From Candidatus Omnitrophota bacterium (GTDB taxonomy: Bacteria > Omnitrophota > Gorgyraeia > Gygaellales > Gygaellaceae), in the NCBI GenBank assembly GCA_018400015.1, contig JAGYNB010000002.1:180555-244554 (forward strand): DNA of 64,000 bases, in the 5' to 3' direction. The position numbers were made by a program, and so were the translations under genes. Under the pieces are notes generated by a model. The model made no database searches and had not been told where the DNA came from. It saw nothing but the letters and a program-made list of their open reading frames with translations. Positions 16,530-64,000 of this stretch are shown piece by piece. Within the stretch, counting starts at the first letter, position 1. Each line of letters opens with the position of its first letter.

Positions 16530-16531
16530 TA

Positions 16532-16981
16532 ATGTTTTCTCCTTTTAGGAAGGTTGTAAATAAACAATTAGGTGAATTGCTGGTTGAGCATAAAATTATC
16601 AGTGAGGCGCAATTAAAAAAAGCCCTTGTGTTGCAAAGCCAGCGTAGCGGCGCTTTAATCGGAGAATTGATAGTAGAGCTTGGTTATGCAAAGGAAGAGG
16701 ATATTGCCAATACTCTGGCAGCCCAGTACGGTTTTCCTTATTTGCCTTTGGATAATTATTCGGTCGACGATAGTATTATAAAATTGATACCGAAGAACGT
16801 TGCGAGTCAGTACTGTTTATTGGCAATAGATAAGCTTGCCAATTCAATTGTCGTAGCCACAAGCAATCCTTTGAACACCCAGGCAATCGAAGACGTTGAA
16901 TATATTACTAATTGTGATGTTCGTGTTTTTATCTCTACGGCAACGAGCATTAGAAAGAAAATCAAAGAGTACTACCAATAG
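16532..16981 (+). CDS. stand-alone MshEN / T2SS-E N-terminal domain protein (putative c-di-GMP binding)
   Basis: 149 aa; tandem MshEN-type motifs KQLGELLVEHKIISEAQLKKALVLQ and ALIGELIVELGYAKEEDIANTLAAQ followed by the GspE_N fold (YGFPYLPL). Confidence 0.7.
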   Translation: MFSPFRKVVNKQLGELLVEHKIISEAQLKKALVLQSQRSGALIGELIVELGYAKEEDIANTLAAQYGFPYLPLDNYSVDDSIIKLIPKNVASQYCLLAIDKLANSIVVATSNPLNTQAIEDVEYITNCDVRVFISTATSIRKKIKEYYQ

Positions 16982-16984
16982 TAA

Positions 16985-18715: not shown

Positions 18716-18717
18716 TT

Positions 18718-20439: not shown

Positions 20440-20440
20440 A

Positions 20441-24607: not shown

Positions 24608-25077
24608 TGCCATTTAAAAGACAACCCATTTACAAAAAGCAGTTGCTGGGCCAGATTTTCTTAAAAAGCGGAATTATTTCCAAAGAGCAACTTAAGGAAG
24701 CGCTTGAATCACAAAAGAAAGAAGGCGGTTTTTTAGGCGGCGTATTGATAAAATTAGGTTATCTTACGGAGATGGATTTGGTTATGGGGCTTTCCAGTCA
24801 GTGTAGCATACCGTATCTGCCGCCCTTAAGGTACAAGATTCCTAAAAATGTTTCTGAAAATTTAAGCGAAGAATTGTTGCGTAAAAATAGCTTTGTTCCG
24901 ATTGATAAATTTCATGATACATTAACTGTTTGTATGGTTAATCCTTTGGACGATCGCTCAATAACAGAGATTACAAATATTACTAATCTTGAAGTTCTTG
25001 TCTGCATTGCCACCAGAGATGAAATTGAGAAAGCGATTAATAACCTATATAAAAAATCTGGTAAAAATGCGTTGTAA
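24607..25077 (+). CDS. stand-alone MshEN / T2SS-E N-terminal domain protein (putative c-di-GMP binding), second copy
   Basis: 156 aa; both 24-residue motifs intact (QLLGQIFLKSGIISKEQLKEALESQ and FLGGVLIKLGYLTEMDLVMGLSSQ) followed by GspE_N fold; ATG overlaps the stop of the giant gene. Confidence 0.7.
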   Translation: MPFKRQPIYKKQLLGQIFLKSGIISKEQLKEALESQKKEGGFLGGVLIKLGYLTEMDLVMGLSSQCSIPYLPPLRYKIPKNVSENLSEELLRKNSFVPIDKFHDTLTVCMVNPLDDRSITEITNITNLEVLVCIATRDEIEKAINNLYKKSGKNAL

Positions 25078-25145
25078 TTTGAGTTTTTATAGTATAAAAT
25101 AATAATAATATTTAAATTATTTAATATTAGAGAAAGGATTTTTAA

Positions 25146-26351
25146 ATGGCTCAGTTTAAATATTATGCAAAAGATAAAAAAGGAGCTTCTGTTAATGGTG
25201 TTTTGGAAGCAGAGAATAAGAATGTTGTTATCGAAGAGTTAAGGCGCAGACAGTTAACGATAATTTCCTTAAAGGAAGCAAAAAAAGCATTCAGTATCGG
25301 AGGTCCAAAGAAAGTCAGCGCTGATGATCTGGTAATTTTCTCTAGACAATTATCCACAATGGTAAATTCCGGTATTCCTTTGGTGCAGTCATTGGATATT
25401 TTAGGTGAACAGCTTGAGAATAAAGAGTTTCGTTCGATAATTATGACCATAAGAGACGATATCCAGACTGGCCTCAGTCTTTCCGGTGCGTTTGCAAAAC
25501 ACCCCAAGGTTTTTTCAACACTTTATATCAATATGGTCAAAGCCGGCGAGACTTCCGGTATGCTCGATGAAATATTAGACAGGCTGGCAATATATCTGGA
25601 AAAATCCAATTCTTTGAAGAAGAAAATAAAATCGGCCATGATTTATCCTGCTTTGGTTTTTAGCATGGCGATTATTATTACTTCAGGATTGTTGATTTTC
25701 GTTGTTCCTCAGTTTAAATCTATTTTTAGCTCTTTTGGAGGTAAACTTCCGTTGCCAACACAGATTTTGATTGCCATAAGCGATAATTTCTCAAAGATAG
25801 TACCTGCTTTGATTGTAATGTTGATCCTTGCCGCAGTTATATTTTCGCGTGTTATTAAAACGCCTAAAGGAAGATATAAGTTTGATCAGTTCAAATTAAA
25901 GGTATTTATTTTTGGCAAGATGTTTCAGATGGTTGCGGTCAGTAGATTCTCTAGAACGCTTTCGACTTTGGTAAGAAGCGGTGTTTCCATTCTTACAGCT
26001 TTAGATATCGTTTCCAAGACAACGGGGAATAAAGTTATTGAGCAGGCGTTAGATAACGTAGGTACTAATATAAAAGAAGGTAAATCTATTGCGTTGCCGT
26101 TAGCGGAAGCAAAGATATTTCCTCCTATGGTTGTAAGGATGATTTCCGTAGGCGAACAGTCCGGAGAACTGGAGAAGATGTTGTCAAAAATCAGTGATTT
26201 TTATGATGAACAGGTGGATATTGCCGTATCGGGCTTATCCAGTGTAATCGAGCCTGTAATTATTATATTCTTGGGTGTTGTGATCGGTTCTATCGTTATC
26301 GCTATATTTTTGCCGATTTTGAAGATGTCTTCTCTTGTTGGGGGCATGTAA
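25146..26351 (+). CDS. pilC: type IV pilus inner-membrane platform protein PilC (GspF family)
   Basis: Two T2SSF repeats and three TM segments; 401 aa; RBS GAGAAAGGA. Confidence 0.85.
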   Translation: MAQFKYYAKDKKGASVNGVLEAENKNVVIEELRRRQLTIISLKEAKKAFSIGGPKKVSADDLVIFSRQLSTMVNSGIPLVQSLDILGEQLENKEFRSIIMTIRDDIQTGLSLSGAFAKHPKVFSTLYINMVKAGETSGMLDEILDRLAIYLEKSNSLKKKIKSAMIYPALVFSMAIIITSGLLIFVVPQFKSIFSSFGGKLPLPTQILIAISDNFSKIVPALIVMLILAAVIFSRVIKTPKGRYKFDQFKLKVFIFGKMFQMVAVSRFSRTLSTLVRSGVSILTALDIVSKTTGNKVIEQALDNVGTNIKEGKSIALPLAEAKIFPPMVVRMISVGEQSGELEKMLSKISDFYDEQVDIAVSGLSSVIEPVIIIFLGVVIGSIVIAIFLPILKMSSLVGGM

Positions 26352-26356
26352 GAGGC

Positions 26357-26824
26357 ATGAGAAAAAGTTTTTCTCTAATTGAGTTAGTGTTTGCTCTTGG
26401 AATATTGGGTCTTGTAGCAGCGACTTTCATGATGAGTTTTGCCAATTATTCTAATCTTAATGAGACCAATATTAATGTTAACCTAGCATATATAAAGGCC
26501 CGTTCGGTTGTTGAAGAATTGCGTTCCATCGATGATTCAGATGAAGGAGATTTAAAGACTGCGAAGGATAGCTGTGGTACTGAAAAATTAGTAGAAAACG
26601 GTCTTTTGGAAGGAGTTGGCCAGCCTGACACAGGGATTTATTCAGTGTATCTGAAGTGTCTAAGGGATGCAGGCGGGTCGTGTCTTGACAGGACATTTGA
26701 TGTAACGGTATCATTGTGTTGGGTGCAGTCAAACGGAAGAGTAATTGGCGAAAGGGATTCTGATAACGAAGAATGCGAAGATTCTATCTATGAATATACC
26801 AGCAGTTTTACCACTGCTAAATAA
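26357..26824 (+). CDS. type IV pilin-like protein (major pilin candidate; atypical Ser at position -1)
   Basis: N-terminus MRKS/FSLIELVFALGILGLVAA with Glu+5, hydrophobic alpha1-N helix, Cys-rich C-terminal region; 155 aa. Confidence 0.6.
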   Translation: MRKSFSLIELVFALGILGLVAATFMMSFANYSNLNETNINVNLAYIKARSVVEELRSIDDSDEGDLKTAKDSCGTEKLVENGLLEGVGQPDTGIYSVYLKCLRDAGGSCLDRTFDVTVSLCWVQSNGRVIGERDSDNEECEDSIYEYTSSFTTAK

Positions 26825-26827
26825 AAG

Positions 26828-27445
26828 ATGATTTCTAAAATTAAGCTTTTTTCCAGAAAAGGTTTCAGCATACTGGAGTTGATTACGGCGATTGGGATTT
26901 TTTCGTTTTTGACCATATTTTTATTTTCCGGGATTATTACCGTGCGCAATATCTGGCTTAAGTCTTCTGCAAAGATAAAATTGGTTGATGAAGGGATGAA
27001 TGCTTTAAGCGTTATGAAATCAGAATTAGCCCAGTCAGGCAGGGATTATTTTAAGATTACGAATTCAGCTAGCGATTATTGCGCCAACAATGATACTAAT
27101 ACCGGGAGTTTGATTATTTTTCCTGTACCGATTTTAATTAGTGGTAAATATCATGATATCAACGGATCAATTAATTGGGGATATGACGGCGATACGAATA
27201 AAAAAATTCGCTATAGAGTCTATGATAATAAGCTTTTTCGTGAGATAGCAGATACGTCTTCAAGCTCTTGCGATACTATCGAGAGCAAAGTATTAGCTTA
27301 CAATATGGATAGCGACTCGCCTGTTACTTTTGAGTATGATACCGGCAGTCACACGATAGCACTAACTATTAATTTAGAAGATAGGGATTTTGCGAGTAAT
27401 GAAGTTGATTTAAGCCTGGAAGAGATTATTTACCCGGAAAATTAA
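26828..27445 (+). CDS. prepilin-type N-terminal cleavage/methylation domain protein (minor pilin or pseudopilin)
   Basis: Canonical G/FSILELITAIGIFS prepilin motif with Glu+5; 205 aa. Confidence 0.65.
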   Translation: MISKIKLFSRKGFSILELITAIGIFSFLTIFLFSGIITVRNIWLKSSAKIKLVDEGMNALSVMKSELAQSGRDYFKITNSASDYCANNDTNTGSLIIFPVPILISGKYHDINGSINWGYDGDTNKKIRYRVYDNKLFREIADTSSSSCDTIESKVLAYNMDSDSPVTFEYDTGSHTIALTINLEDRDFASNEVDLSLEEIIYPEN

Positions 27446-27458
27446 GAAGGTGTGACCT

Positions 27459-29906
27459 ATGAAAAATAAAAAAGGAATTGCAATAATCGTGACATATTCT
27501 ATATTGGTGCTTTTGTTGATTTTATCCGTTGCGTTTATGTACCAAAGTATTAATGCTAATTATTTGAGCAAAAGAAGAGTTTCAAATAACAAAGCGCGCG
27601 CCAATGCAGAAAAAGGCATTGCGCTCATAAAAAGAGAGCTTGGTTTTAGAAGCCAGAGCAATCCGTTGATCACGCATTCAGTTAACGCTTCCACAGACGC
27701 CTTAGAAAGTAATAATATCAATCCTTCATTACATGTACCAGGTGTTTCCATATTTAATGACGACAGCCAGCCTGATATAGACGGTTGTTTCAATGGCTAT
27801 GATGACGATTCAAATCTTATTTTTAGGGTTAAAACATTCAATAAAGAAAGTTCTTCAGGGGATGTGGTTATTATCAGTCAGGGCATTGACGCAGATAGCA
27901 AAGCATATTTGGCTTCCACGCTTAGTTCTTCCAGTCTTTACCAATATTTTATGTTTTATGAAGGTAAGACATATTTTTTTGGTTCAACTAATATAGACGG
28001 TAAAGGTATAGGAAAGATATTTGTCAATGGTGATGCGGGTTTTACCAGTCCCCAGCTTAAAGATTTGGCTAGTTTTGAAGTTGCCGGAGACATGAGCAAT
28101 TATTATTACGGGTATCTTAATCCCTCTATTTTGGATAGTTTAGCTGCAGACGGCCCTGGTATCACTAACGGTGCTCCCACCCCTTGTCTTTATGTGGATA
28201 CATCTGTTGCCGACCCTGATTATGACTATAGCGATCCCGCTAATCCCGCCAAGCATGATTTTAATGGCGATGGAGTGGTTAATTATAAGGATTGGATATA
28301 TTCTCCTGCTGACCCTCAACCGTGGAACGATAATTCAAGTGCTTATGCCCGGTTTCAGCCGTATACAAGCACTCCTTATGAATGGCGTGACATAGATACG
28401 CATTTTTATAATCCGTCTGGTTTCGGTGACCAGTTTATTTTTACTTCAGAAAGCGGAGCAGTTTCTGATTATGGTTTTAATCTTCCCGGCAACGGAGACG
28501 AATCTGCACTATCAACTTCTTGGGACTTTAATTTATTTGGCAGTGCTTCCAGTTATGATGATATAACCTGGCAGTATTATGATTACCAGACCGGTACGAT
28601 TAAAGCTGCGGACAGTGACTATTGGGATTTTGTAGAGGATAGGTATGGTTTGGAAATTCCTGATTATTTAAGGAATTTAGGTAGTGTTGAAACGCAGTCT
28701 GTCAATTATCTGAATACGGAAAAGCAGCCTGAGTGGCAGTCTTGGCTTGACGGTAAATCAATATCAATGGATGACGGTAGTACTAAAACCTTAGGTGAAA
28801 TAATTAAAACCGACCAGGATTCGATCACCCAGCCCGAGGTAAGCACTTATTATTATGATTTGGCTAATGATCCGGCAACAGGAATATATATAAATCCTGC
28901 GCAGTTGATTAATGGAACTGTTACCGATGAAAAAGTCCAGAAATTAATCGATGAGCAATGTATTACAGTCACGCAGTTTTATAATAATGTTTATCCGGCT
29001 TATGATAAAAAAGGAACAACCAATAATCCAGAAGACGATATTACTTATCCTGAGAAGTCAGTAAAAATTGATGTTGCCTGCGTAAAGGCTTTATCTGATG
29101 ACGCTTCAGATTCAGTGAAAGCTAATATTATTTATGTCGAAGGGGTAAAAACTTCCGTACAGGGCCAGGAATGGGATAATACGCCCGCCGCCGGAGAATA
29201 TAAAAATCTTCCTGTTTCTACGCTGTTGGTTAATGGCGAAAGCGTTCCCGAAGGGGGCTTAACTGTAGTTGCCCCTTATCAGGTATATGTAAAAGGAAAT
29301 TTTAATACTGTTGATCCCCAGTCGTCATCGGTTATCACAAATTCATATTATTATGCAATTTCTGATAATTATCAGGATTATGGAACTGACAGGGAGAGTA
29401 TTGCCTCGACATGCAGTGGGGATTTTTATGATTCCAATTGCGACGGCCCGCAGCATTTGCCAGGACTTTATGATTATTATACAGACATATACGGGAAAGT
29501 AGGCGCTTTGGAATATCCCTATGAAGCAAATGAGGCAGTGAATTATCCGGGTAAAAATAATCCTGAAGTCAATGGCGGTAACTATGACGGTAATTTTACT
29601 CAAAGAATATCTTTAGTCAGTCCTAATCCGTCAGTTTATTTTATTGGCAGAGGCTCAGGCACTTTGAATCGGATTGGTTCGATTATTGAGTCTAAAAGTT
29701 GGGGAGCTTATTATACTCCAGGTGCGTATGATCGCGGCAGGGTCAATTACGGTAATCCTATTGGTAGGTACAGTTCACTTGGATTAAAACAAGCTTACGA
29801 TACAATGCTGGAAACAGACAAACCTCCGGGTGATTACAGCGGCACCTCTAGCGGTTTGTTTGTTGAGGTATCGGAAAATGATTTTTTAGTTAATACTAAA
29901 TTTTAA
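27459..29906 (+). CDS. large PilX_N-domain pilus-associated protein (putative tip or adhesin protein, PilY1-like role)
   Basis: N-terminus KKGIAIIVTYSILVLLLILSVAF resembles PilX_N; 815 aa rich in D/N/Y/G/S; contains an EF-hand-like loop DFNGDGVVNYKD (about 28257-28292). Confidence 0.55.
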   Translation: MKNKKGIAIIVTYSILVLLLILSVAFMYQSINANYLSKRRVSNNKARANAEKGIALIKRELGFRSQSNPLITHSVNASTDALESNNINPSLHVPGVSIFNDDSQPDIDGCFNGYDDDSNLIFRVKTFNKESSSGDVVIISQGIDADSKAYLASTLSSSSLYQYFMFYEGKTYFFGSTNIDGKGIGKIFVNGDAGFTSPQLKDLASFEVAGDMSNYYYGYLNPSILDSLAADGPGITNGAPTPCLYVDTSVADPDYDYSDPANPAKHDFNGDGVVNYKDWIYSPADPQPWNDNSSAYARFQPYTSTPYEWRDIDTHFYNPSGFGDQFIFTSESGAVSDYGFNLPGNGDESALSTSWDFNLFGSASSYDDITWQYYDYQTGTIKAADSDYWDFVEDRYGLEIPDYLRNLGSVETQSVNYLNTEKQPEWQSWLDGKSISMDDGSTKTLGEIIKTDQDSITQPEVSTYYYDLANDPATGIYINPAQLINGTVTDEKVQKLIDEQCITVTQFYNNVYPAYDKKGTTNNPEDDITYPEKSVKIDVACVKALSDDASDSVKANIIYVEGVKTSVQGQEWDNTPAAGEYKNLPVSTLLVNGESVPEGGLTVVAPYQVYVKGNFNTVDPQSSSVITNSYYYAISDNYQDYGTDRESIASTCSGDFYDSNCDGPQHLPGLYDYYTDIYGKVGALEYPYEANEAVNYPGKNNPEVNGGNYDGNFTQRISLVSPNPSVYFIGRGSGTLNRIGSIIESKSWGAYYTPGAYDRGRVNYGNPIGRYSSLGLKQAYDTMLETDKPPGDYSGTSSGLFVEVSENDFLVNTKF

Positions 29907-29917
29907 ATAGGCATTTA

Positions 29918-30571
29918 ATGGCGCAAATAAATTTACTACAGACGAGAGCGGTTTTAAAAACTAAAAAAGCAAAGGCGGATAAAGGTGCTGCCAGCGCTAA
30001 GAAGTTTTCTTTTGACTTTAAAATTGACTTTCGCAGGATGCCCAGGTGGTTTTTTGCCATTGCCATAGGCTGGATTGTTTTTTTGGCACTTGGTGAAACG
30101 ATAATGATTTTAAAGTTAAATGATTCCAAGCGAAAACTAAAGATCCTTGAAACAGAAGGCAGTTTTTTTTCAAAAAGCCCCAAAGAGATAGAGGATTTAA
30201 AAAAGAAGAAAAAAAGCCTTCAGGACGCCTTAGGAATTATCGAAGGATTTCTGATTACCAAAACGCCTTTTTCACAGGCGCTTAATATTATAAGTGATCA
30301 GATAATTGACGGGGTTTGGCTTGAGAAGATATTTTTTAATTCCAAGAAAATCGGTAAAGACAAAGAAGAGATCACTATAAAAATAAACGGTAAAGTTTAC
30401 TCGGCAATCTCGCAAGAGCAGATAGATATATTGGGACAGTTTTCCAATGGTTTAAAAAATAATCCTTATTTTGAATTATTGTTTAGCAGTTTGCAGGTTG
30501 GTAATCTTAAAAATGTAGATTATATGGGATTTGATGTTTTGGATTTTGAAATGGAGGTATCTTTAAGATAA
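29918..30571 (+). CDS. pilN: type IV pilus assembly protein PilN-like
   Basis: N-terminal INLLQTR (INLLP-type) motif, single TM segment, periplasmic coiled-coil plus ferredoxin-like region; 217 aa. Confidence 0.7.
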   Translation: MAQINLLQTRAVLKTKKAKADKGAASAKKFSFDFKIDFRRMPRWFFAIAIGWIVFLALGETIMILKLNDSKRKLKILETEGSFFSKSPKEIEDLKKKKKSLQDALGIIEGFLITKTPFSQALNIISDQIIDGVWLEKIFFNSKKIGKDKEEITIKINGKVYSAISQEQIDILGQFSNGLKNNPYFELLFSSLQVGNLKNVDYMGFDVLDFEMEVSLR

Positions 30572-30575
30572 TATT

Positions 30576-31157
30576 ATGGACTTTGATATTAAAAGAATTA
30601 TAGAATGGGTTAAGTTTAGGAAAGTGGAAGTTTCTATTCTTGCGGGGTTATTTGTTATTGGCCTAATATTATCATTTTTGCTATTTCAACCACAGGCGAG
30701 AAAAATCCAGGAATACAATAATTCCTTAATCTCAAGCTCTAAGGATACAAGCAATCTGCGTACAGCGCAAGTAGAATTAAACGAGTTAAAAAAAGAAATT
30801 ACTGTTATTGAAGAGACTTTAGCAGAACATGAAAAAAAACTCTTTTCTCAGGAAGATACTCAGGCATTTTTAAATTATATAAACAGGCTCGCGAAGTTTT
30901 ATAACGTGCGCATTCTAAAGATCAATCCTTTATCACAGGTTGAAAACGAAGTTAAGTCTTTGGATAAGGTGTATCTGGCAATGCCTTATCGGTTGAGTTT
31001 AACCTGTAGCTATCATAATCTAGGGAAATTCCTGAATAAACTTGAGCAGTCAAAGGATAGTTTTGTAAGGGTTGATAGTTTGTCTATACAGGCCGACAAC
31101 AGCAATATGAGAGAGCATAAAGTGGAGTTAGGGATAACTATTTTTTCCATTAAATAA
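30576..31157 (+). CDS. pilO: type IV pilus assembly protein PilO-like
   Basis: Single N-terminal TM segment then coiled coil; size and position between pilN and pilP. Confidence 0.6.
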   Translation: MDFDIKRIIEWVKFRKVEVSILAGLFVIGLILSFLLFQPQARKIQEYNNSLISSSKDTSNLRTAQVELNELKKEITVIEETLAEHEKKLFSQEDTQAFLNYINRLAKFYNVRILKINPLSQVENEVKSLDKVYLAMPYRLSLTCSYHNLGKFLNKLEQSKDSFVRVDSLSIQADNSNMREHKVELGITIFSIK

Positions 31158-31158
31158 T

Positions 31159-31545
31159 ATGAAAAAGATAATTTTATTAATTATGTTTTTGAGTTTCTCA
31201 ATAATTGCTAGTGCCAGTGAAAATGATTTTGAACAAAGGCTTAATTTTGTGTATAATGATAATAATAAGCGCGATCCGTTTATCCCTTTACTTGATAAAG
31301 ACGGGTTGCGACCAAGATCGGATTTATTTGAGAAAGCTGAACTTCCGATAAAAATTGATCTATCAGGTATTGTCTGGAATAAACAAGTGCAATTTGCTAT
31401 AATTAATGGTAAAATAGTGAAAGAAAATGAAGAAGTTACAAGAGGTCTTACTTTAGAAAAAATTAATTCTGATAACGTGGTTTTAGAGTATGGAGGAAGA
31501 AGTACTAAGGTGTATATAGGAGGCCCTAAGAAGGATGATAAGTAG
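31159..31545 (+). CDS. pilP: type IV pilus assembly protein PilP-like
   Basis: Signal peptide, conserved RDPF motif (NKRDPFIPLL), C-terminal beta domain; 128 aa. Confidence 0.6.
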   Translation: MKKIILLIMFLSFSIIASASENDFEQRLNFVYNDNNKRDPFIPLLDKDGLRPRSDLFEKAELPIKIDLSGIVWNKQVQFAIINGKIVKENEEVTRGLTLEKINSDNVVLEYGGRSTKVYIGGPKKDDK

Positions 31546-33100
31546 TAAAAGAATAAAGTTTATATTTGTTTTTTTATTGTGCTTAGGTGTTTGTATATAT
31601 ACACTTAACGCAGAAGAGTTTAATCCTGCTGAGTTTGGCCAGGAAGGATTTGATCCTGCTTTTCAGGCAGTGCCACCTATTCAAACCGCACAAGTTATCA
31701 AAAAAGATAGCGTTCAAAAGCAGGAAGAGGAAATTCCAGCCAAAGAACAAGCTTTTGAGGCAGGTGGGGTTTACAACAATGAGGATTTTGTGAATTTGGC
31801 TTTTGACAATGCCGATATCCGCGATGTTATAAAAGTTTTAGCTGCAAGAAGCGATATGAATATTATTGTCGGTGAGGGTGTTCAAGCAAATGTTACCATG
31901 AAGCTAAAAGATGTAATTTGGGAGTCAGCCCTGGAATTAATCCTAAATACGTATAATCTTACCTATCAAAAAGAAGGCAATCTTATTAGAGTTATGACGC
32001 TTACTGAATCTGAAGAGGAAGCGAAGAAAATTCCAATGATAACTAAGATCATTCCGCTTAATTTCGCACAAACTCCTGAAATGTCCGCTTCCATTGCCAA
32101 GATGCTTTCTGCAAGAGGGTCTGTACAGGAAAATGTACGTACGAATACATTGATTATCACCGATATCCCTTCGCGCGTTAAGATGATAGAAGAGACGATT
32201 ACGAAACTTGATACACCTACACCCCAGGTTTTAATCGATGTTTTGATTATGGATATCACCTTAACCGATAGCGATGATCTGGGTGTTGACTGGCAGGCAA
32301 TCACGACAAACCAGTTATCAGATTTAAGCAGTGCCAATAGAACAAAGTCGGTCACTTTAGAGCAGCCATCAGGCATGTCTACAACAGGCGGTATTGCAGG
32401 AGATCCGGCATTTACGCTGGCTCTTGTTAAAAAGTTTGGTGAAGCTAATTTTACTGCTAACCTGCAGGCATGGATAGAAAATAAAGAAGCCAAGGTTTTG
32501 GCAAATCCGAAGATTTTAACGCTTGATAATCAGGAAGCTAAAATCGAAATAATAAATCAGTTTCCATATCTGCAGACTTCAAGTTCGACTGACGGCGGCA
32601 GCACTAGCGGAACAGAATATAAAAATATAGGAACTAGCCTTAGCGTAACAGCGCATATTACTAATGACGGACATATTACTTTAAATTTAAAACCGGAACA
32701 GGATATAAATGCCGGAACCGACTCTACAACCGGTGCGCCTATTGTTGATACCCGTTCTGCCGAGACCAATGTTTTGGTAAAAGATGGCCAGACCGTTGCC
32801 TTGGGCGGTTTAAGGCGTGTTGATAAGTCTACTACTATAAGCAAAGTACCTATTTTGGGGGATATTCCGTTTATCGGCAAGATATTCCAGAATAGGCAAA
32901 TTGACGACAAGGACGTTGAACTTGTAATGTTTGTTACTCCTCATATCATAAAGGATGCTGGCATAACTGATAAAGAAAGAATGTACATAAAAGAAAATCT
33001 TCCTGGTCCACAAAGGCCTTTTTTGCGCAACAAGCCCTTTGTTTTAGAGGAAAAATACGATTTAAGGTCCCCTTCATATAAAACTAAAGGGAGTAAATAA
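31535..33100 (+). CDS. pilQ: type IV pilus secretin PilQ (short form, no AMIN domains)
   Basis: Signal peptide, N0/N1-type domains, C-terminal secretin domain (VLANPKILTLDNQEAKIEI...GGLRRVDKSTTISKVPILGDIPFIGKIFQ). Confidence 0.85.
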   Translation: MISSKRIKFIFVFLLCLGVCIYTLNAEEFNPAEFGQEGFDPAFQAVPPIQTAQVIKKDSVQKQEEEIPAKEQAFEAGGVYNNEDFVNLAFDNADIRDVIKVLAARSDMNIIVGEGVQANVTMKLKDVIWESALELILNTYNLTYQKEGNLIRVMTLTESEEEAKKIPMITKIIPLNFAQTPEMSASIAKMLSARGSVQENVRTNTLIITDIPSRVKMIEETITKLDTPTPQVLIDVLIMDITLTDSDDLGVDWQAITTNQLSDLSSANRTKSVTLEQPSGMSTTGGIAGDPAFTLALVKKFGEANFTANLQAWIENKEAKVLANPKILTLDNQEAKIEIINQFPYLQTSSSTDGGSTSGTEYKNIGTSLSVTAHITNDGHITLNLKPEQDINAGTDSTTGAPIVDTRSAETNVLVKDGQTVALGGLRRVDKSTTISKVPILGDIPFIGKIFQNRQIDDKDVELVMFVTPHIIKDAGITDKERMYIKENLPGPQRPFLRNKPFVLEEKYDLRSPSYKTKGSK

Positions 33101-34980
33101 TGAGGAAAAAGTTCTTATTAATTTTTACTTTTTTTATTTTAAGTTTTTCTTTGAATTATTCCTTTGCCCAAGATCAAAATCCTCTTCTTGGTGAAGAAGA
33201 ATTGATATGGCAAAAAAACGTTAGCGGCATAAAAGATGCAGTGAAAGATTTAATTAACGAAAACAAGAACTTAAAGCAGCAAATTGAGTTAAGGTCTTTA
33301 GAGATGCACAAACTTAATGAAATCATGAAGACCTTGCAGGAAAAGAACGAAACACTTCAGCAAAAAATCGAATCAACTGACCTTAAAGTTAATTTAAACA
33401 GCAAAGTAAAGTCTCTCGTCCAGCGCGCTGATTCATTAGAAAGCGTGAAAGCCTCGCTTGATGAAGAGGTAAAACAGCTCAGAGAGGAAAATAAAACTTT
33501 AAAAAGAGACTCCGCGGCATTTGAAAAAGAGCTCAACACGTTAAGAAAAAAACTTGAAGCTACGGAAGATGAACTTAAACAAATGAATGATTCTTATGGC
33601 AATTTTAAGCAAAAATCTCTTGATTACGAAAAAGAGCTTGAGGGCAAACTTGTTAAATTAGAGTCTGATAATAAAAGATTTAGCGCGGCAGCTGAAGAAA
33701 ATGAGAAGTTGTCAACTCAGCTTAATGAAATAAAACAAGATCTTGAAAGTTCTCAGAAAGAAATCGGTGAATTAAAAAAATCTTTAGCGGCCAAGGACAA
33801 GATAATTGGATTCAGTAAGGATGAGCTTAAAAAAATCGAGCTTTTATCCAGCGAGTTAGGAAAAAGTGAAAAAGAAGTAGTTGATTTGAGAAAACAGTTG
33901 AATGAGTCCAATAAAAATTTAGAGATTGCCAATAAAGAGATTGGATTGCTTAATGAATCGTTCAATAAATTCAAAGAAAAATCAGCTGAATATCAGGAAA
34001 AACTGATCAAAGCCCAGAAAGAGAATATAGATTTAGAAAGCAGGATCGCTCCTTTGCAAGACGACTTAAAAAAAAAGATTTTAGAGATTGAAAATGTTAA
34101 GTCTGGTTATGAAAACCAGATTTCATTGTTAAAGACTCAAAATTCCGCATTAGAAGACAGAATCGCATTTTTTTCTCAAGAGATTACCCAGTTAACGGCT
34201 GAAAAAAGAGAATTAGAATCCTCGATGGCCAAGTTAAAGTCTAGAATCGAACCTCTAGTGAGCCCTTTTAAAGAAGAGATTCGTCAAAAAGACTACGAGC
34301 TCGATAGAATCAAGTCTAATTACGAAAAAGATTTAAGTAAGATTAAGGAAAATAATTCTTCTTTGAATGATAGAATAGATTCTTTGAGCGGTTTTATCGC
34401 TCAGGCAAATGCTGAAAAAAGACTTCTTGAACAAGAGTTTTTAAATATGCAGGACAAGCTTAAGTCTCTGGAGCAGGAAAAAGATCTTGCCTTAAGAAGA
34501 TCTGTTATGGTCAGCGATGCCCGTAAAACAAAACAAATTAGAACTGCTTCTGTTTATTCTGATTCCAAACAGAAGGATAATGGTTTTCAAATACCTGAAA
34601 GCGTAAAATTAAGGGCATTAAAACAGGCAGAGAATAAATTAGGCAGTTTTACAAAACAGGATTCGACAGCTATAGGGGCGATGCTTGAAACTGCTTATGA
34701 TTATGCGTTTGGTGGTCAGATTAAATTGGCAATAAAAGAATATGCCAATGTTTTAGAGATTGATCCCGGGAACAAAGACGCCTTGTTTAACCAGGGGGTA
34801 ATTTATCTTAATGCCAATGATTCTAGACGTGCAGTTGTTAACTTTGAGAAGCTCATAGAATTAGATCCCAATGACGAACAGGCATTATATAATTTGGCTT
34901 TATGTTACAGTAAGCTTCATAATAAAAAACAGATGGAATATTATTATTTAAAATATTTGGAATTGGAAAATGGCTCTTGA
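33100..34980 (+). CDS. secreted coiled-coil protein with C-terminal TPR repeats (pilus-associated; PilF/FimV-like role possible)
   Basis: Signal peptide MRKKFLLIFTFFILSFSLNYSFAQ, about 450 aa of continuous coiled coil, 3-4 C-terminal TPR motifs. Confidence 0.55.
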   Translation: MRKKFLLIFTFFILSFSLNYSFAQDQNPLLGEEELIWQKNVSGIKDAVKDLINENKNLKQQIELRSLEMHKLNEIMKTLQEKNETLQQKIESTDLKVNLNSKVKSLVQRADSLESVKASLDEEVKQLREENKTLKRDSAAFEKELNTLRKKLEATEDELKQMNDSYGNFKQKSLDYEKELEGKLVKLESDNKRFSAAAEENEKLSTQLNEIKQDLESSQKEIGELKKSLAAKDKIIGFSKDELKKIELLSSELGKSEKEVVDLRKQLNESNKNLEIANKEIGLLNESFNKFKEKSAEYQEKLIKAQKENIDLESRIAPLQDDLKKKILEIENVKSGYENQISLLKTQNSALEDRIAFFSQEITQLTAEKRELESSMAKLKSRIEPLVSPFKEEIRQKDYELDRIKSNYEKDLSKIKENNSSLNDRIDSLSGFIAQANAEKRLLEQEFLNMQDKLKSLEQEKDLALRRSVMVSDARKTKQIRTASVYSDSKQKDNGFQIPESVKLRALKQAENKLGSFTKQDSTAIGAMLETAYDYAFGGQIKLAIKEYANVLEIDPGNKDALFNQGVIYLNANDSRRAVVNFEKLIELDPNDEQALYNLALCYSKLHNKKQMEYYYLKYLELENGS

Positions 34981-36046
34981 TCAAAAAGGTTTTTTAGGCA
35001 TAGGCAGTAGTCTTTTCAAGCAAAAAGAAAAGAATTTTGTAGGTATTGATATCGGTTCATCAAGCATTAAGATTGTAAGGCTTGTTCCGAATAGAGATAA
35101 TAAGAAAATGCAGTTAAGTGATTTTGCCGATATTGCTTTTGAAGAACAGGTCAGCACCGATCAAATAAAACGCGCGGTTGATGAAGCTTTAAAGCAAACC
35201 AATATTCCTAAAGATAGCGAAGCAGTTTTTAATATCCCCAATAATTCTGCCATAACCCGTTTTATAGTAATGCCGAAGATGAATCATGACGACCTGAGAA
35301 AAGCCATTGGTTATGAACTTGAAAAATACATTGCTTTTGATACAAAAGAGGCTGTTTATGATTTTCGTATTTTGGATGACCTGCAGACTAAAGAAGGCCA
35401 TTTAAAAGTTCTTTTGGTTATTACAAAGAAAGAGACTGTTGATGAAAGGGTAAAGGCGATCGAAGATGCAGGGCTTATTCCTAAAGTGGTAAGTATTGAT
35501 TCTGTTGTTATTCCTAATACATTTTATCTTAATCATATAGATAAAAAAGATAAGAATATCGCCATAGTAAACCTTGGATCTCGGCTATGCAGTATCAGTG
35601 TTGTTAAAGGCGGAATATCCAACTTTATGCGTGATATAGCAATTGGAATAGAAAATATAGTAAGTTTGGTTTCGGAAAAACTGGAAATGAACAAAACTGA
35701 TATTATTAATTCTATTATGAAACCTGAATTGCAGTCTAATGATTTTAAAGATATTATTAATTCAGTTTTGTCTAATTTGTTGAACGAACTTTACCTTTCG
35801 TTCGATTATTACGAGACGCAGTTCGAAACTTCTATTGACGAGATTTATATTACCGGCGGACTTTCTCAGCAGCCGGGTTTGATTGACTTTTTATCCAGTA
35901 ATTTAGGTATATCAGTTAATAAACTTAATCCCCTATTGAATCTTGAAGTTGCTGCCGAATTGAAGTCCAAGATTGATTCAAAGAAGGATATTATGGCTGT
36001 AAGCATAGGTCTTGCCTTAGAGGAATCCGATCTAAAATATTTTTAA
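34970..36046 (+). CDS. pilM: type IV pilus assembly protein PilM (actin-like ATPase fold)
   Basis: FVGIDIGSSSIKIVRL N-terminal ASKHA phosphate-1 motif, PilM_2 domain organisation; 358 aa. Confidence 0.8.
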   Translation: MALDQKGFLGIGSSLFKQKEKNFVGIDIGSSSIKIVRLVPNRDNKKMQLSDFADIAFEEQVSTDQIKRAVDEALKQTNIPKDSEAVFNIPNNSAITRFIVMPKMNHDDLRKAIGYELEKYIAFDTKEAVYDFRILDDLQTKEGHLKVLLVITKKETVDERVKAIEDAGLIPKVVSIDSVVIPNTFYLNHIDKKDKNIAIVNLGSRLCSISVVKGGISNFMRDIAIGIENIVSLVSEKLEMNKTDIINSIMKPELQSNDFKDIINSVLSNLLNELYLSFDYYETQFETSIDEIYITGGLSQQPGLIDFLSSNLGISVNKLNPLLNLEVAAELKSKIDSKKDIMAVSIGLALEESDLKYF

Positions 36047-59501: not shown

Positions 59502-59885
59502 ATGCAGGAATTGATTAAAGATTTTTTAAAACAGAAGAAAATAGCAGTTGCAGGCTCATTTAGGAATGAGACCAAGTTTGCCTATAAGATATTCAAGGCA
59601 TTAAGGTCAAAAGGCTATGAGGTGTATCCTGTTAACCCAGGCCTTGATCAGGTAGATGGAGTAAAGTGTTATAAAAGCATAAAAGACATCCCGTTTGATA
59701 TCGATGCTGTAAATCTGGTGGTGCCGCCAAAGGTATCACAAGAGATGATAAAAGACTCACTTGAGAGATCCATTAAAAAAATCTGGCTGCAGCCCGGGGC
59801 TGAGGATGAGGCTGTTTTAGAATTCTGCCAGGATAATAATATCAAGCCAATCCACGGGCTTTGTATAATGCTTGAGGCTTTGTAA
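59502..59885 (+). CDS. CoA-binding domain protein (YccU-like)
   Basis: KKIAVAGSFRNETKFAYKIFKALRSKGYEVYPVNP Rossmann-like CoA-binding motif; 127 aa. Confidence 0.75.
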   Translation: MQELIKDFLKQKKIAVAGSFRNETKFAYKIFKALRSKGYEVYPVNPGLDQVDGVKCYKSIKDIPFDIDAVNLVVPPKVSQEMIKDSLERSIKKIWLQPGAEDEAVLEFCQDNNIKPIHGLCIMLEAL

Positions 59886-59910
59886 TAAAGAATATAAGGG
59901 GATTATTGTC

Positions 59911-60672
59911 ATGAAACAATGGTATGAACAGTTATTTGAAAACTACGCTCATAAATACGATCAGGAGCCTTTTGTGCAGGGCACTGTTGGTGAGTGTGAT
60001 TTTATTGAAACTGAGATAAACCGCGATAAAAGTAAAAGGATTATAGATATCGGCTGCGGTACAGGACGCCACGCGATAGAACTTACCAAAAGAGGCTATA
60101 AGGTTACTGGTATTGATTTTTCCGTTTCCCAGATCAACAGGGCAAAAGAAAAAGCTAAAGAGCAAGGATTGACTATAGACTTTCAAATGCAAGACGCGCG
60201 TAATCTTACCTTTAAAGAGGAATTTGACTTAGCGATTATGATTTGCGAAGGGGGTTTCTCTTTAATGGAGACAGACGAGATGAACTTTGCAATACTTAAA
60301 AGCGCTACAAGAGCGTTAAAAGATAAGGGAAAACTAATATTTACTGCTTTAAACGGGCTTTTCCCGCTATTGCATTCGGTTAAAGATTTTTATGAGTCTA
60401 AAGCTAAAGAAGGCCAGTCCCAGTGCAAGGATTGTTCCTTTGACCTGATGACTTTCAGAGATCATAATACTGTTGTGTTTGAAGATGATTCTGGCAATAA
60501 AAAAGAGCTAAAATGCAATGAGCGCTATTACCTGCCCAGTGAGATAACCTGGCTTCTTAAAAGCCTTGGGTATAAGCAAATCGATATCTTCGGCGCAAAA
60601 CTTGGGGCTTTTTCAAGGGAAGAGAAGCTCACTAGCGAACACTTTGAGATGCTTGTGTCGGCGCAGAGGTAG
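59911..60672 (+). CDS. class I SAM-dependent methyltransferase
   Basis: Motif I IIDIGCGTGRHAIEL; ATG 59911 with AAGGGG RBS (the track's 59872 start is an upstream extension). Confidence 0.75.
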   Translation: MKQWYEQLFENYAHKYDQEPFVQGTVGECDFIETEINRDKSKRIIDIGCGTGRHAIELTKRGYKVTGIDFSVSQINRAKEKAKEQGLTIDFQMQDARNLTFKEEFDLAIMICEGGFSLMETDEMNFAILKSATRALKDKGKLIFTALNGLFPLLHSVKDFYESKAKEGQSQCKDCSFDLMTFRDHNTVVFEDDSGNKKELKCNERYYLPSEITWLLKSLGYKQIDIFGAKLGAFSREEKLTSEHFEMLVSAQR

Positions 60673-60872: not shown

Positions 60873-61655
60873 GTGCGAAAGTTAATTTGTTTTTTCTGTA
60901 TAAGTGTTTTATTTGTTCCTTTAATGAATGTTCATGCGGCTATGATAGGCGCAGCTCAAACCCAAGGGCAGAGTAAGATATCTTTTGCTTTAGAACAAGA
61001 TATAGTTTTTGATAGGGATATGAAAATAATAAGTATAAGCCCTGATGTAGGGACAGTTATTAGCGATATGAAATTTGACGAAATGTATCGAACAGATATA
61101 AAGGTTAGTTATGGTTTGCTGGAGAATTTGGATGCATATATTAAACTAGGAATTGCTGATTTTAAGATGTCGGAAAATTGGAGATCAACAACACCTGAAG
61201 TGGGAACAATAAAGGATAAAGCAAAAAATGACTTGTTGTGGGGCCTTGGGTTAAAAGGTACTATGCAATTGGAAGATGATTGGTTATTAGGAATCGATAC
61301 GCAGTATTTATCTCATCGAAATAAATTTGAGGGACAAATTAACAATATAAGTAGTCCAGCTGATAGTGAGGATTATTCAGGTAAAATGAAAATTAAAGAA
61401 TGGCATGTAGCTCCGTATGTTGCAAAGAAGTTCGATAATCTTATTCCCTATTTGGGAATAAAATATTCAGATCTTAGGATAAAAAATGAGTTTAGCACAT
61501 CCAGCAACGATACAGAAGAAAAAAGGAAAGCTGAAGATAATTTCGGTATTTTTGTAGGAACGGATTATAAAATTGACGATGACTGGAAGCTGAATATAGA
61601 AGGCAGATTTTTAGATGAGACGGCAATGAGCCTGGGAGCTTCTTGTAAATTTTAA
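60873..61655 (+). CDS. outer-membrane beta-barrel protein (porin/MOMP-like)
   Basis: Signal peptide MRKLICFFCISVLFVPLMNVHA; alternating amphipathic beta-strands; C-terminal ...GASCKF ending in Phe (BAM recognition). Confidence 0.6.
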   Translation: MRKLICFFCISVLFVPLMNVHAAMIGAAQTQGQSKISFALEQDIVFDRDMKIISISPDVGTVISDMKFDEMYRTDIKVSYGLLENLDAYIKLGIADFKMSENWRSTTPEVGTIKDKAKNDLLWGLGLKGTMQLEDDWLLGIDTQYLSHRNKFEGQINNISSPADSEDYSGKMKIKEWHVAPYVAKKFDNLIPYLGIKYSDLRIKNEFSTSSNDTEEKRKAEDNFGIFVGTDYKIDDDWKLNIEGRFLDETAMSLGASCKF

Positions 61656-61698
61656 AATATGACAATATAAAAAAGAAATTTTTATTGATTCATTGTAT

Positions 61699-61738
61699 AC
61701 CCGCAGAGGATAATTTATCTTTTGCGGGTGTTTTTTTA
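61699..61738 (+). terminator. rho-independent terminator
   Basis: ACCCGCAG...TTGCGGGTG hairpin followed by TTTTTTT. Confidence 0.65.
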
Positions 61739-61807
61739 CGTAATTCTCTCTTTAGCTCCTGCGTCAATAGCCGATTTTCCTAAAAAAATATAAACCTCGT
61801 TTTATTA

Positions 61808-61836
61808 TTGACACGGGCGCGTTATTATTTTATAAT
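61808..61836 (+). promoter_or_regulatory. consensus sigma70 promoter (TTGACA-17-TATAAT) for the DUF134-arsP-arsM operon
   Basis: TTGACA 61808-61813, 17-nt spacer, TATAAT 61831-61836. Confidence 0.7.
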
Positions 61837-61848
61837 GCACATATGTGC
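61837..61848. promoter_or_regulatory. perfect 12-bp palindrome GCACATATGTGC immediately downstream of the -10 (candidate operator)
   Basis: GCACAT/ATGTGC directly abutting TATAAT and overlapping the expected +1; AGGAGCAATAAG RBS and ATG 61866 follow. Confidence 0.55.
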
Positions 61849-61865
61849 GAAATAGGAGCAATAAG

Positions 61866-62183
61866 ATGAGGCCTAAGAAAACTAGATGGGTTAAGTGTGA
61901 ACCGGGGGAGAGGTGTTTTCGTCCTCAGTGCAAGCCTTTGAATAAATTAGAAGGTGTTTATATGACTATAGATGAGTTTGAGGCGATAAGGCTCTCATAT
62001 CTCGAAGGTTTAACCCAAGAGCAAGTTGCAAAGAAAATGAAAATCCACCGTTCGACCGTATCCCGCATATTGGAGTCAGGAAATAAAAAAGTAGCCGATG
62101 CTCTTGTGAATATCAAGTCTATAAAAATTGAAGGTGGCTGTTGTAAGATTGTAGGAGATAAAAAACATGAAAGAAAAAAATAA
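61866..62183 (+). CDS. DUF134-family predicted DNA-binding protein (HTH, Cys-containing)
   Basis: EGVYMTIDEFEAIRLSYLEGLTQEQVAKKMKIHRSTVSRIL (sigma-70 region-4-like HTH), N-terminal CEPGERCFRPQC and C-terminal GGCC cysteines; ATG 61866 preferred (the track's start at 61845 lies inside the operator). Confidence 0.65.
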   Translation: MRPKKTRWVKCEPGERCFRPQCKPLNKLEGVYMTIDEFEAIRLSYLEGLTQEQVAKKMKIHRSTVSRILESGNKKVADALVNIKSIKIEGGCCKIVGDKKHERKK

Positions 62184-63339
62184 ATTTTTATTAATGTTTG
62201 CTGTGTTTTTAGCATTCTTCTATCTGCCTGTTGAGTTGCTGTCTTTTCGCAATCCCGTTTTTGAGTCTCTTGCGTTGGTTCGTTGGTACGCCAGAGAACA
62301 TGTTTTGCTTTGCCTCGTTCCGGCTTTTTTTATCGCCGGAGCAATATCGGTTTTTGTATCTCAGGCGTCTGTTATTAAATACTTCGGAGCAAAAGCGAAT
62401 AAATTTCTTGCTTATAGCGTTGCGTCTGTTTCCGGAACAATTTTGGCAGTTTGTTCATGCACTGTCTTGCCTTTATTTTCTGGAATTTACAAAAGAGGCG
62501 CGGGGTTAGGGCCGGCTACTGCATTTCTTTATTCAGGTCCGGCAATTAACGTGCTTGCGATTATTATGACAGCCAGAATTCTTGGCTGGGAGTTAGGCTT
62601 GGCTAGGGCAGTTGGAGCGGTTATATTTAGTGTTGTAGTAGGGTTATTGATGCATCTAATATTTATAAAGGAAGAAAGAGCCAGGCAAACGAACGGCGAT
62701 TTTCAGCTGGGGGAAGCTGAAGAAGCCAGGCCGTTATGGAAAAACGCGGTTTATTTTATTTCCATGGTAGGTATCCTTGTATTCGCTAACTGGGGAAAGC
62801 CTCAGGATGGCGATACAGGGCTTTGGGCGGCAATCTTTAATCTCAAGTGGATAATAACTCTTGGTTTTCTTGTTTTATTAATCATAATGCTCATAGCATG
62901 GTTTAAGAAGCAGGAGTTAAAAAACTGGACGAGCGCTTCCTGGACTTTTGCCAAACAGATAATGCCTTTACTTCTTGCCGGTGTAGTTGTGGCAGGATTG
63001 TTATTGGGCCGGCCGGGACATGAAGGTTTTATTCCATCGTGGATAATCGAAAAAGCTGTTGGTGGCAATTCACTGCTATCGAATTTCTTCGCTTCAATTG
63101 TGGGGGCATTCATGTATTTTGCCACCCTTACTGAGGTACCCATTTTGCAGGGCTTGATCGGTGCGGGTATGGGCAAAGGGCCTGCATTAGCTCTGCTTTT
63201 GGCTGGCCCGGCTTTAAGTTTGCCGAATATGTTGGTTATCCGTGGTGTTATCGGCACCAAGAAAACAGTTGTTTATGTCAGCCTTGTCGTGGTCATGGCG
63301 ACAATAAGCGGGATTGTTTTTGGAATGATCGTATCTTAA
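62167..63339 (+). CDS. arsP: DUF318/ArsP-family permease (putative organoarsenical efflux permease)
   Basis: 8-TM permease with a CSC motif inside a TM helix (ILAVCSCTVLPLF), as in ArsP-type permeases; overlaps the DUF134 gene end. Confidence 0.6.
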   Translation: MKEKNKFLLMFAVFLAFFYLPVELLSFRNPVFESLALVRWYAREHVLLCLVPAFFIAGAISVFVSQASVIKYFGAKANKFLAYSVASVSGTILAVCSCTVLPLFSGIYKRGAGLGPATAFLYSGPAINVLAIIMTARILGWELGLARAVGAVIFSVVVGLLMHLIFIKEERARQTNGDFQLGEAEEARPLWKNAVYFISMVGILVFANWGKPQDGDTGLWAAIFNLKWIITLGFLVLLIIMLIAWFKKQELKNWTSASWTFAKQIMPLLLAGVVVAGLLLGRPGHEGFIPSWIIEKAVGGNSLLSNFFASIVGAFMYFATLTEVPILQGLIGAGMGKGPALALLLAGPALSLPNMLVIRGVIGTKKTVVYVSLVVVMATISGIVFGMIVS

Positions 63340-63350
63340 AGGAGATGTTT

Positions 63351-64000
63351 ATGGAAAAAGATATCAAGAAGTTAGTTAAAGAAGGTTATGCTAAGGTTGC
63401 CAAGAAAGGGACATCCTGTTGTTCTTCCGGATCGTGCTGTTCATCATCAGACAACGCCCGGGATATCAGTAAGAGCGTTGGCTATAGCGATGATGAGATA
63501 AAAACTGTTCCTGACGGGGCGAACTTAGGGCTTGGCTGCGGTAATCCGGTGGCCATAGCTTCGTTAAAAGAGGGTGATGTTGTGCTTGATTTAGGCAGCG
63601 GTGCAGGATTTGATGCTTTTCTTGCGGCTAAGAAAGTAGGCAAGACAGGGCGTGTTATCGGCGTGGATATGACTGCGGAAATGCTGGAGAGAGCACGGGC
63701 GAACGCTAAAAAAGGCGGGTTTGATAACGTGGAGTTCCGCTCAGGCGAGATAGAGAAACTTCCTGTGGAGGATAATATGATTGATGTAGTTATCTCTAAC
63801 TGCGTTATAAACCTATCACCGGATAAACAGACGGTGTTTAAGGAAGCGTTCAGGGTGCTTAAGCCAGGAGGCAGGCTGATGGTTTCCGATCTGGTCCTGG
63901 TCAAAGAGTTGCCAGAACAGATTAAGGAATCGGTCGAAGCGTATGTGGGTTGTCTTACCGGAGCGATTAAGAAAGATATATATCTTGGGTTCATCAAGCA
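63351..64000 (+). CDS. arsM: arsenite S-adenosylmethionine methyltransferase (ArsM), N-terminal about 216 aa; 3' end beyond window
   Basis: Translation MEKDIKKLVKEGYAKVAKKGTSCCSSGSCCSS...VLDLGSGAGFD...VISNCVINL...YVGCLTGA shows the N-terminal Cys pairs, SAM motif I and the two catalytic Cys contexts of ArsM; AAGGAG RBS; no stop before the window end. Confidence 0.8.
   Translation, partial: MEKDIKKLVKEGYAKVAKKGTSCCSSGSCCSSSDNARDISKSVGYSDDEIKTVPDGANLGLGCGNPVAIASLKEGDVVLDLGSGAGFDAFLAAKKVGKTGRVIGVDMTAEMLERARANAKKGGFDNVEFRSGEIEKLPVEDNMIDVVISNCVINLSPDKQTVFKEAFRVLKPGGRLMVSDLVLVKELPEQIKESVEAYVGCLTGAIKKDIYLGFIK

Follow-up and report, generated by a model that had tools for sequence, protein, structure and literature searches.

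A DUF134 helix-turn-helix protein as a candidate arsenic-responsive repressor in the place of ArsR in ars operons of Omnitrophota

Which protein controls an arsenic-resistance (ars) operon in whose visible part no gene for a regulator of the ArsR/SmtB family is found? This question is raised by a 64-kb stretch of contig JAGYNB010000002.1 from a Candidatus Omnitrophota bacterium (hereafter the window, always at its full length), at the end of which a gene for a small DUF134 protein with a helix-turn-helix (HTH) domain is followed by a permease gene and by arsM, with the window ending within arsM and the remainder of the operon lying beyond it. An earlier, sequence-only reading had placed the cysteine-rich DUF134 protein in the position of ArsR, and comparative genomics supports this placement at the sequence level through the synteny and conservation of the gene order, the scarcity of ArsR, an operator that co-varies with the recognition helix of the protein, cysteines specific to one DUF134 clade, and a fold other than that of ArsR. 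We propose, with a probability of roughly 0.65, that the 105-aa DUF134 protein is a dedicated, autoregulated, and thiol-based repressor of ars genes that responds to arsenite (As(III)) or methylarsenite (MAs(III)) and fills the role of ArsR. Repression rather than activation, dimeric binding to DNA, and direct binding of arsenic are what we infer in this proposal. The features concerned are the following.

61866..62183, + strand: DUF134 gene (PF02001), 105 aa, ars-type HTH protein, proposed autoregulated repressor
62167..63339, + strand: permease gene of family PF03773 (ArsP_1; E = 1.5e-76), 390 aa, with a CSC motif
63351..64000, + strand: 5′ part of arsM (216 codons; NF008823), arsenite S-adenosylmethionine methyltransferase, cut by the window end
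61808..61836, + strand: sigma-70 promoter, TTGACA-17 nt-TATAAT, 12/12 consensus positions
61835..61850, no strand: putative operator ATGCACATATGTGCGA, a palindrome that abuts the −10 box
61837-61848: perfect 12-bp palindromic core GCACATATGTGC inside the putative operator
61855-61858: ribosome-binding site GGAG, 5′ of the DUF134 ATG at 61866
61697..61741, + strand: intrinsic terminator (16-pair stem and T-run) that ends the outer-membrane beta-barrel gene 5′ of the operon
60873-61655: OMP_b-brl gene (Pfam), 5′ of the terminator

The order of a DUF134 gene, an ArsP-like permease gene with a CSC motif, and arsM, as first read from the letters, was borne out by matches to PF02001, PF03773, and NF008823, all on the + strand, and the three genes form one tightly packed operon. 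The first 17 nt of the permease gene overlap the end of the DUF134 gene, an overlap that couples the two translationally, and arsM starts 11 nt beyond the permease gene. The terminator at 61697-61741 marks the 5′ boundary of this transcription unit. The translated permease holds its C-x-C motif within AVCSCTVLP, and such a motif in a transmembrane segment is reportedly important in ArsP. The ArsM part, 216 aa long and with its C-terminal third outside the window, scores 344 bits against the NF008823 cutoff of 263, and its translation contains the cysteine motifs SCCSSGSCC, GLGCGNP, SNCVINL, and YVGCLTGA. All 60 crude gene calls of the window lie on the + strand.

The same arrangement recurs across relatives. 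A scan of one genome per GTDB species returned 242 matches, from which the best 80, with 63–89% DUF134 identity, were used (P0001 is the DUF134 protein 100% identical to the one in the window). Each related locus comprised the DUF134 gene with up to 10 kb of flank per side; genes were called crudely and then clustered, and neighbors were identified with NCBIfam. By record title, these loci came mostly from Omnitrophota, including Candidatus Velamenicoccus archaeovorus, Candidatus Saelkia, and Candidatus Zapsychrus, along with a minority from metagenome-assembled genomes (MAGs) labelled Auribacterota, Thermodesulfovibrionia, Planctomycetia, or Pseudomonadota. The conserved order runs from DUF134 through the PF03773 permease, (ArsM), an ArsE-family thioredoxin, ArsF, ArsG, and Acr3 to an ArsC of the low-molecular-weight protein tyrosine phosphatase type. 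Four of these neighbors score above their NCBIfam cutoffs (TIGR00412, MTH895/ArsE family; NF040494, ArsF; NF040495, ArsG; TIGR00832, Acr3), and the ArsC match, TIGR02691, lies below its cutoff at 119 bits. Immediately after the DUF134 gene came a permease in 58 of the 80 loci, a count that takes in both orthologous and more distant PF03773 members, then Acr3 in 12, ArsM in 5, ArsE/F in 3, ArsC in 1, and an intervening, unclassified open reading frame (ORF) in 1 (L070). At least one canonical ars gene (ArsM, ArsE/F, ArsG, Acr3, or ArsC) was present in the same-strand run of 71/80 loci, and the nine others consisted of three truncated contigs and six loci with the permease only. The sequence-only reading had called the cluster organoarsenical: ArsM and the PF03773 permease are indeed there, yet Acr3 and ArsC in the relatives indicate by analogy that this is a general ars operon and not a purely organoarsenical one.

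This association does not extend to DUF134 proteins at large. In a control set of 80 metagenome loci (L081–L160) around generic DUF134 genes, 36/80 of these genes adjoined NifX-like genes, and ars-operon genes were nearby in only ~3/80. In one such control (L131), a set of ArsP, ArsE, ArsF, and ArsG genes lies just upstream of the generic DUF134 gene, an arrangement also seen in two related loci (L038 and L044). A general lack of association between DUF134 and ars genes had been named beforehand as a point that would tell against the proposal; such a lack is found for the family and not for the clade to which the window protein belongs. From gene neighborhoods, the ars association thus appears to be a property of one narrow DUF134 clade, complete there, rather than of the whole family. 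The clade is small: an exhaustive HMMER search of 1.84 billion representatives yielded 3192 DUF134 clusters at 50% identity, and only ~5 of these (full-length) fall in the ars clade, with a clear score gap after them. Consistent with this, the window protein matches PF02001 well (E = 4.5e-20; 72.5 bits vs a cutoff of 27; residues 2–93 of 105) while failing the NCBIfam PRK04217 equivalog cutoff (60.6 bits vs 115), which suggests that it belongs to a divergent clade.

Several further observations concern the same loci. Generic DUF134 paralogues that do not carry C17, C22, or the CC pair of the window protein, often with a C-terminal CxxC...CxxC tail, pair with NifX-like genes (cluster c18), for example in L038 (12951-13789), L044 (4498-5336), and L068 (12229-13505). 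This pairing hints that the DUF134 family overall may regulate metallocluster-related genes. On a 1.1-kb Logan contig, the 163-aa product P0075 joins an intact ars-type DUF134 protein in frame to ArsM fragments; the fusion is probably a deletion or assembly artefact, and it shows DUF134 and arsM directly adjacent. Four loci hold, between ArsE and ArsF, a cysteine-rich protein of 118–135 aa with the pattern MCxE...CSGG...DGCP..C (cluster c20; L076 12315-12671, L041 4593-5000), for which no NCBIfam match was found and which, we presume, may be a DGC-type zinc-binding protein. A second S-adenosylmethionine-dependent methyltransferase gene lies in the window two genes 5′ of the ars operon (59872-60672; Methyltransf_25; best NCBIfam match CpaM, sub-threshold). 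It was considered as part of the system and rejected, as the outer-membrane protein gene and the terminator lie between and it is not ArsM by NCBIfam. Its product groups loosely with ArsM by BLAST, and similar genes occur upstream in L003, L038, and L063.

As originally noted, no ArsR/SmtB-type gene was found in the window: the best E value of a tblastn search with four ArsR-family queries was 2, and of the 18 gene calls of ≤200 aa in the window, the 15 scanned with Pfam showed no HTH_5 or HTH_20, the other three being the DUF134 and CoA-binding genes, which were Pfam-scanned separately, and the truncated first ORF. The same queries did match ArsR-like ORFs in 4/80 related loci, which served as a positive control, and left 76/80 loci, with up to 10 kb of flank per side and including all 21 loci with an orthologous ArsM, without any ArsR-like sequence. 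One ArsR-like ORF is divergent from the DUF134 gene (L022, 9408-9650), and in two loci a classical ArsR adjoins a second, distant ArsM-like gene near the DUF134-headed operon (L052, 490-1498; L063, 1771-2806), suggesting that the two regulator types can coexist in one genome. None of the known ArsR-type operators was seen in the promoter region.

What that region contains instead was evaluated by aligning the 110 nt 5′ of every DUF134 orthologue. These sequences were unconserved except for the promoter and the palindrome. A promoter matching at least 9 of the 12 consensus positions abuts the palindrome in 62/71 evaluable related loci, and in ~78/80 loci a palindrome of 16–20 bp, (TT)ATG[C/A]ACATATGT[G/T]CAT(AA), ends 13–22 nt before the ATG. 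One locus (L036) retains a single half-site, and another (L069) has its palindrome 94 nt 5′ of the start codon. In the window, the palindrome takes in the final 2 nt of the −10 box and extends over the expected transcription start; in the related loci the −10 box overlaps the palindrome by 1–2 nt or stops 4–5 nt before it, a spacing at which the site covers the expected transcription start. Within the window the palindrome has a single match, against 0.06 expected by chance, and in 1.06 Mb of related loci there was one copy per locus, all other matches being degenerate and inside genes. Membership in a wider regulon was therefore rejected, with no further copies in the window or in the 1.06 Mb beyond intragenic chance matches, and the palindrome looks like a strictly local, autoregulatory site. 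It was also considered as an RNA element and rejected, since scans of the window detected no tRNA and no Rfam family.

The two half-sites, the centers of which are 10 bp apart, vary in concert with each other and with the HTH recognition helix (~residues 58–70). Helices with H61/S63/(I,V)65 occur with GCAC...GTGC in 43/43 loci, and helices with S61/P63/F65 occur with GAAC...GTTC in 31/31 loci. Four intermediate S/S/F helices are associated with mixed sites, one of them a hybrid (GAAC...GTGC). Wherever the protein has T66 (5/5 loci), the center of the site reads CCATGG or CCATAG, and a more distant member with the helix HASTVC has an altered palindrome, TGCAACTAATTGCA. Because this co-variation combines with the position and symmetry of the site, binding of a DUF134 dimer to the palindrome is the best-supported step of the proposal, and we regard it as very probable. 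The site overlaps the promoter of the DUF134 gene itself, is conserved in orthologues, and is matched to the recognition helix, a combination that points to an autoregulated repressor; a consensus promoter with the site placed over −10/+1 likewise argues for repression and not activation.

The cysteines quoted in the sequence-only reading are real: C11, C17, and C22 lie in CEPGERCFRPQC, and C92/C93 in GGCC. Their conservation was counted over 81 ars-clade sequences, and the top 150 family representatives were used for comparison.

C11: conserved in 79/81 ars-clade sequences
C17: conserved in 80/81
C22: conserved in 76/81
C92: conserved in 79/81
C93: conserved in 81/81

Of the 150 representatives, 120 have Gly at position 22 and 89 have Tyr or Phe at position 17; positions 92/93 vary, with CC rare but present in all five full-length closest relatives. 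Thus C17, C22, C92, and C93 are rare in generic DUF134 proteins, while C11 is common to some of them. A GCC motif was found in 0/80 of the generic control proteins, and generic paralogues in the same genomes as the ars-type proteins read ...VRCRPDANYFKPRG...IEGGVV. Divergent CC-type DUF134 proteins with 53–64% identity (L161 800-1159; L162 26-1001; L163 380-790; L164 1912-3217) have lost C17, C22, or, as in P0124 and P0125, both of these, and keep C11, C92, and C93. P0122 is followed by Acr3 and P0124 by an aquaporin of the major intrinsic protein (MIP) family; by locus, Acr3 follows the DUF134 gene in L164 and a MIP aquaporin gene follows it in L162. The MIP aquaporin family includes known As(III) channels. 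P0125 keeps the operator, and in L161 and L163, for which upstream sequence was available, the palindrome or a helix-matched variant is kept. The retained C11, C92, and C93 would be the minimal triad that an S3 (three-sulfur) As(III) site would need.

With respect to the fold, AlphaFold2 (AF2) models the HTH core (residues 30–88) with confidence, and the cysteine-bearing tails are of low confidence and predicted to be flexible. The strands predicted at residues 15–24, 30–33, and 85–88 are weak evidence for packing of the N-terminal hairpin against the residues immediately preceding GGCC. Sequence and Foldseek matches in the PDB were to sigma-70 region 4 and to the N-terminal DNA-binding domain of DeoR/SorC proteins (for example 7bhy, 40% identity over 40 residues); they were HTH-level matches only, with no solved DUF134 structure among them. 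An ArsR/SmtB identity was rejected, as neither HTH_5 (PF01022) nor HTH_20 (PF12840) was among the 14 Pfam hits, and a MarR identity was rejected as well (MarR 18.6 bits vs 24.6 and MarR_2 18.7 vs 27, both covering the HTH only). The predicted DUF134 fold is accordingly a sigma-70 region 4/DeoR-like HTH and not a winged helix.

Taken together, these features suggest the following mechanism. A DUF134 dimer would bind the palindrome ATGCACATATGTGC(AT) through its sigma-70-region-4-like HTH, with the half-sites one helical turn apart, and, as the site overlaps the −10 box and covers the transcription start, the bound dimer would block RNA polymerase. The thiolates of Cys92 and Cys93, together with that of N-terminal Cys11, 17, or 22, would hold As(III) or the MAs(III) that ArsM of the operon itself generates. 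Arsenic binding would change the flexible N- and C-terminal arms, and the protein would leave the DNA, de-repressing the genes for DUF134, the PF03773 permease, and ArsM; judging from the related loci, an ArsE-like thioredoxin, ArsF, ArsG, Acr3, and ArsC are probably next in the operon.

Several points weigh against this proposal. Apart from the Candidatus Velamenicoccus enrichment, the relatives are all uncultured MAGs or single-amplified genomes, and six complete-looking loci hold just DUF134 and a permease of unproven substrate. In a neighbor-joining tree built without the helix residues, the co-variation reduces to ~2–3 independent switches, so that 43/43 and 31/31 overstate its statistical weight, and we consider it supportive rather than overwhelming. 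AF2 confidence is below 50 in the cysteine regions, which makes the spatial proximity of the cysteines uncertain. This last point bears on the main rival, in which DUF134 regulates the operon without binding arsenic, its cysteines holding Zn or an Fe-S cluster or sensing thiol/redox stress through a disulfide, and arsenic acting indirectly. Generic DUF134 genes are linked to NifX-like and Fe-S-type neighbors, some generic proteins carry CxxC zinc-ribbon tails, and the operon itself encodes thiol-redox proteins (thioredoxin-like ArsE/ArsF and CcdA-like ArsG). However, C17, C22, and the CC pair are rarely seen in DUF134 proteins other than those of the ars-operon clade, and in 12 loci DUF134 is followed only by Acr3 and ArsC, with no redox genes there for it to control. 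The combination of a vicinal pair with one distant cysteine is moreover the pattern of the characterized As(III) sensor MarR_ars, and several ArsR types also use it. We therefore judge the rival unlikely, although it is the one to be taken most seriously.

It is less probable still that an ArsR/SmtB protein encoded elsewhere in the genome, or just past the window end, is the real sensor, with DUF134 in a secondary or accessory regulatory role. The window breaks off within arsM, and among the four related loci with ArsR-like ORFs within 10 kb (L022, L052, and L063 among them), L052 and L063 carry an ArsR–ArsM module in addition to the DUF134 operon, so that an ArsR elsewhere is conceivable here. 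Set against this are the 76 loci without an ArsR-like sequence and the fact that the promoter has a single conserved cis-element, namely the palindrome, which changes in step with the DUF134 helix. Sigma-70 region 4, the best match of DUF134 in both sequence and fold, raises the alternative of an activator or sigma-like factor, which we consider very improbable: the promoter matches the sigma-70 consensus at 12/12 positions and needs no activator, the palindrome sits over the −10 box and transcription start and not upstream of −35, and a 105-aa protein is without sigma regions 2 and 3. An arsenic-responsive DUF134 repressor thus remains our preferred reading of the locus.

Elsewhere in the window, and unrelated to the ars operon, positions 16500-36000 hold a cluster resembling type IV pilus or type II secretion genes, with several small MshEN-domain proteins and components like PilO and those of the type II secretion system. 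A gap in the crude gene calls at 12183-13305 corresponds to a RodA/FtsW-like ORF.

Extending the proposal, we put at somewhat better than even the odds that ars-type DUF134 proteins represent an unrecognized structural class of repressors that sense As(III)/MAs(III), in which a sigma-70-region-4-like HTH is combined with an S3 site from the C-terminal vicinal cysteine pair and an N-terminal cysteine, convergent with ArsR and MarR_ars and acting as the standard ars regulator of Omnitrophota, and that by extension the DUF134/UPF0251 family (~3200 clusters) consists of small ligand- or metal-sensing operon repressors. The sequence-only reading had described DUF134 proteins as largely uncharacterized, in agreement with the full-text literature searched on DUF134/UPF0251/PF02001/COG1342, which gave incidental mentions only and none linking the family to arsenic; nothing relevant was found in the literature on Omnitrophota and ars. 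If the proposal is true, DUF134 would be the third protein fold known among arsenic-responsive repressors, besides those of ArsR/SmtB and MarR_ars, and another case of convergent thiol-based metalloid sensing, and would provide a first functional handle on a family that is widespread in anaerobic bacteria and archaea and has essentially no literature. It would also account for the control of ars operons in the large, uncultured phylum Omnitrophota and would imply that ars-gene surveys keyed on arsR miss DUF134-headed operons. The compactness of the system (a 105-aa protein, a 16-bp operator, and a consensus promoter) makes it directly testable and a possible new chassis for arsenic biosensors.

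Compared with known systems, the permease resembles ArsP, the methylarsenite efflux permease of Campylobacter jejuni, in belonging to PF03773 and carrying a C-x-C motif; it scores below both NCBIfam equivalog cutoffs of its family (SO_0444 and SaoE). The continuation of the related loci, with genes reaching the ArsE-family, ArsF, and ArsG models of NCBIfam, is like the ArsEFG module of Shewanella. Generic DUF134/UPF0251/COG1342 proteins share with the ars-type protein an N-terminal RPxxxR...P...FxP arm, the HTH, a C-terminal beta strand ending in GG, and, in some, Cys11, while differing from it in Tyr/Phe17, Gly22, the usual absence of a CC pair, and NifX-like neighbors. As with the ArsR/SmtB repressors (R773 ArsR, AfArsR, CgArsR, and the MAs(III)-selective SpArsR), the DUF134 gene comes first in an ars operon and is apparently autoregulated; its product is small (~105 aa) and a predicted dimer on a palindromic operator that overlaps the promoter; a vicinal cysteine pair in a flexible terminal region provides probable As(III)/MAs(III) ligands; and the genes downstream are the usual ars set (Acr3, ArsC, ArsM, and an ArsP-like permease). 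Unlike them, it has another fold and family, another operator sequence, and no detected homology to ArsR. In AdMarR_ars, a MarR_ars protein of Achromobacter, the vicinal Cys36–Cys37 pair and Cys157 were shown experimentally to make the protein leave the promoter in response to As(III)/Sb(III) (bioRxiv 10.1101/2021.08.12.456183). There, too, a clade of a non-ArsR regulator family was recruited to ars genes, and Cys92/93 with Cys11/17/22 are proposed for DUF134 by the same logic; MarR_ars differs in being a winged-helix protein, proteobacterial, and experimentally demonstrated, whereas the DUF134 case is computational. By analogy, the proposed logic therefore matches that of ArsR and, most closely, that of MarR_ars: the regulatory logic itself is conventional, and the new part is the different, uncharacterized fold that would carry it.

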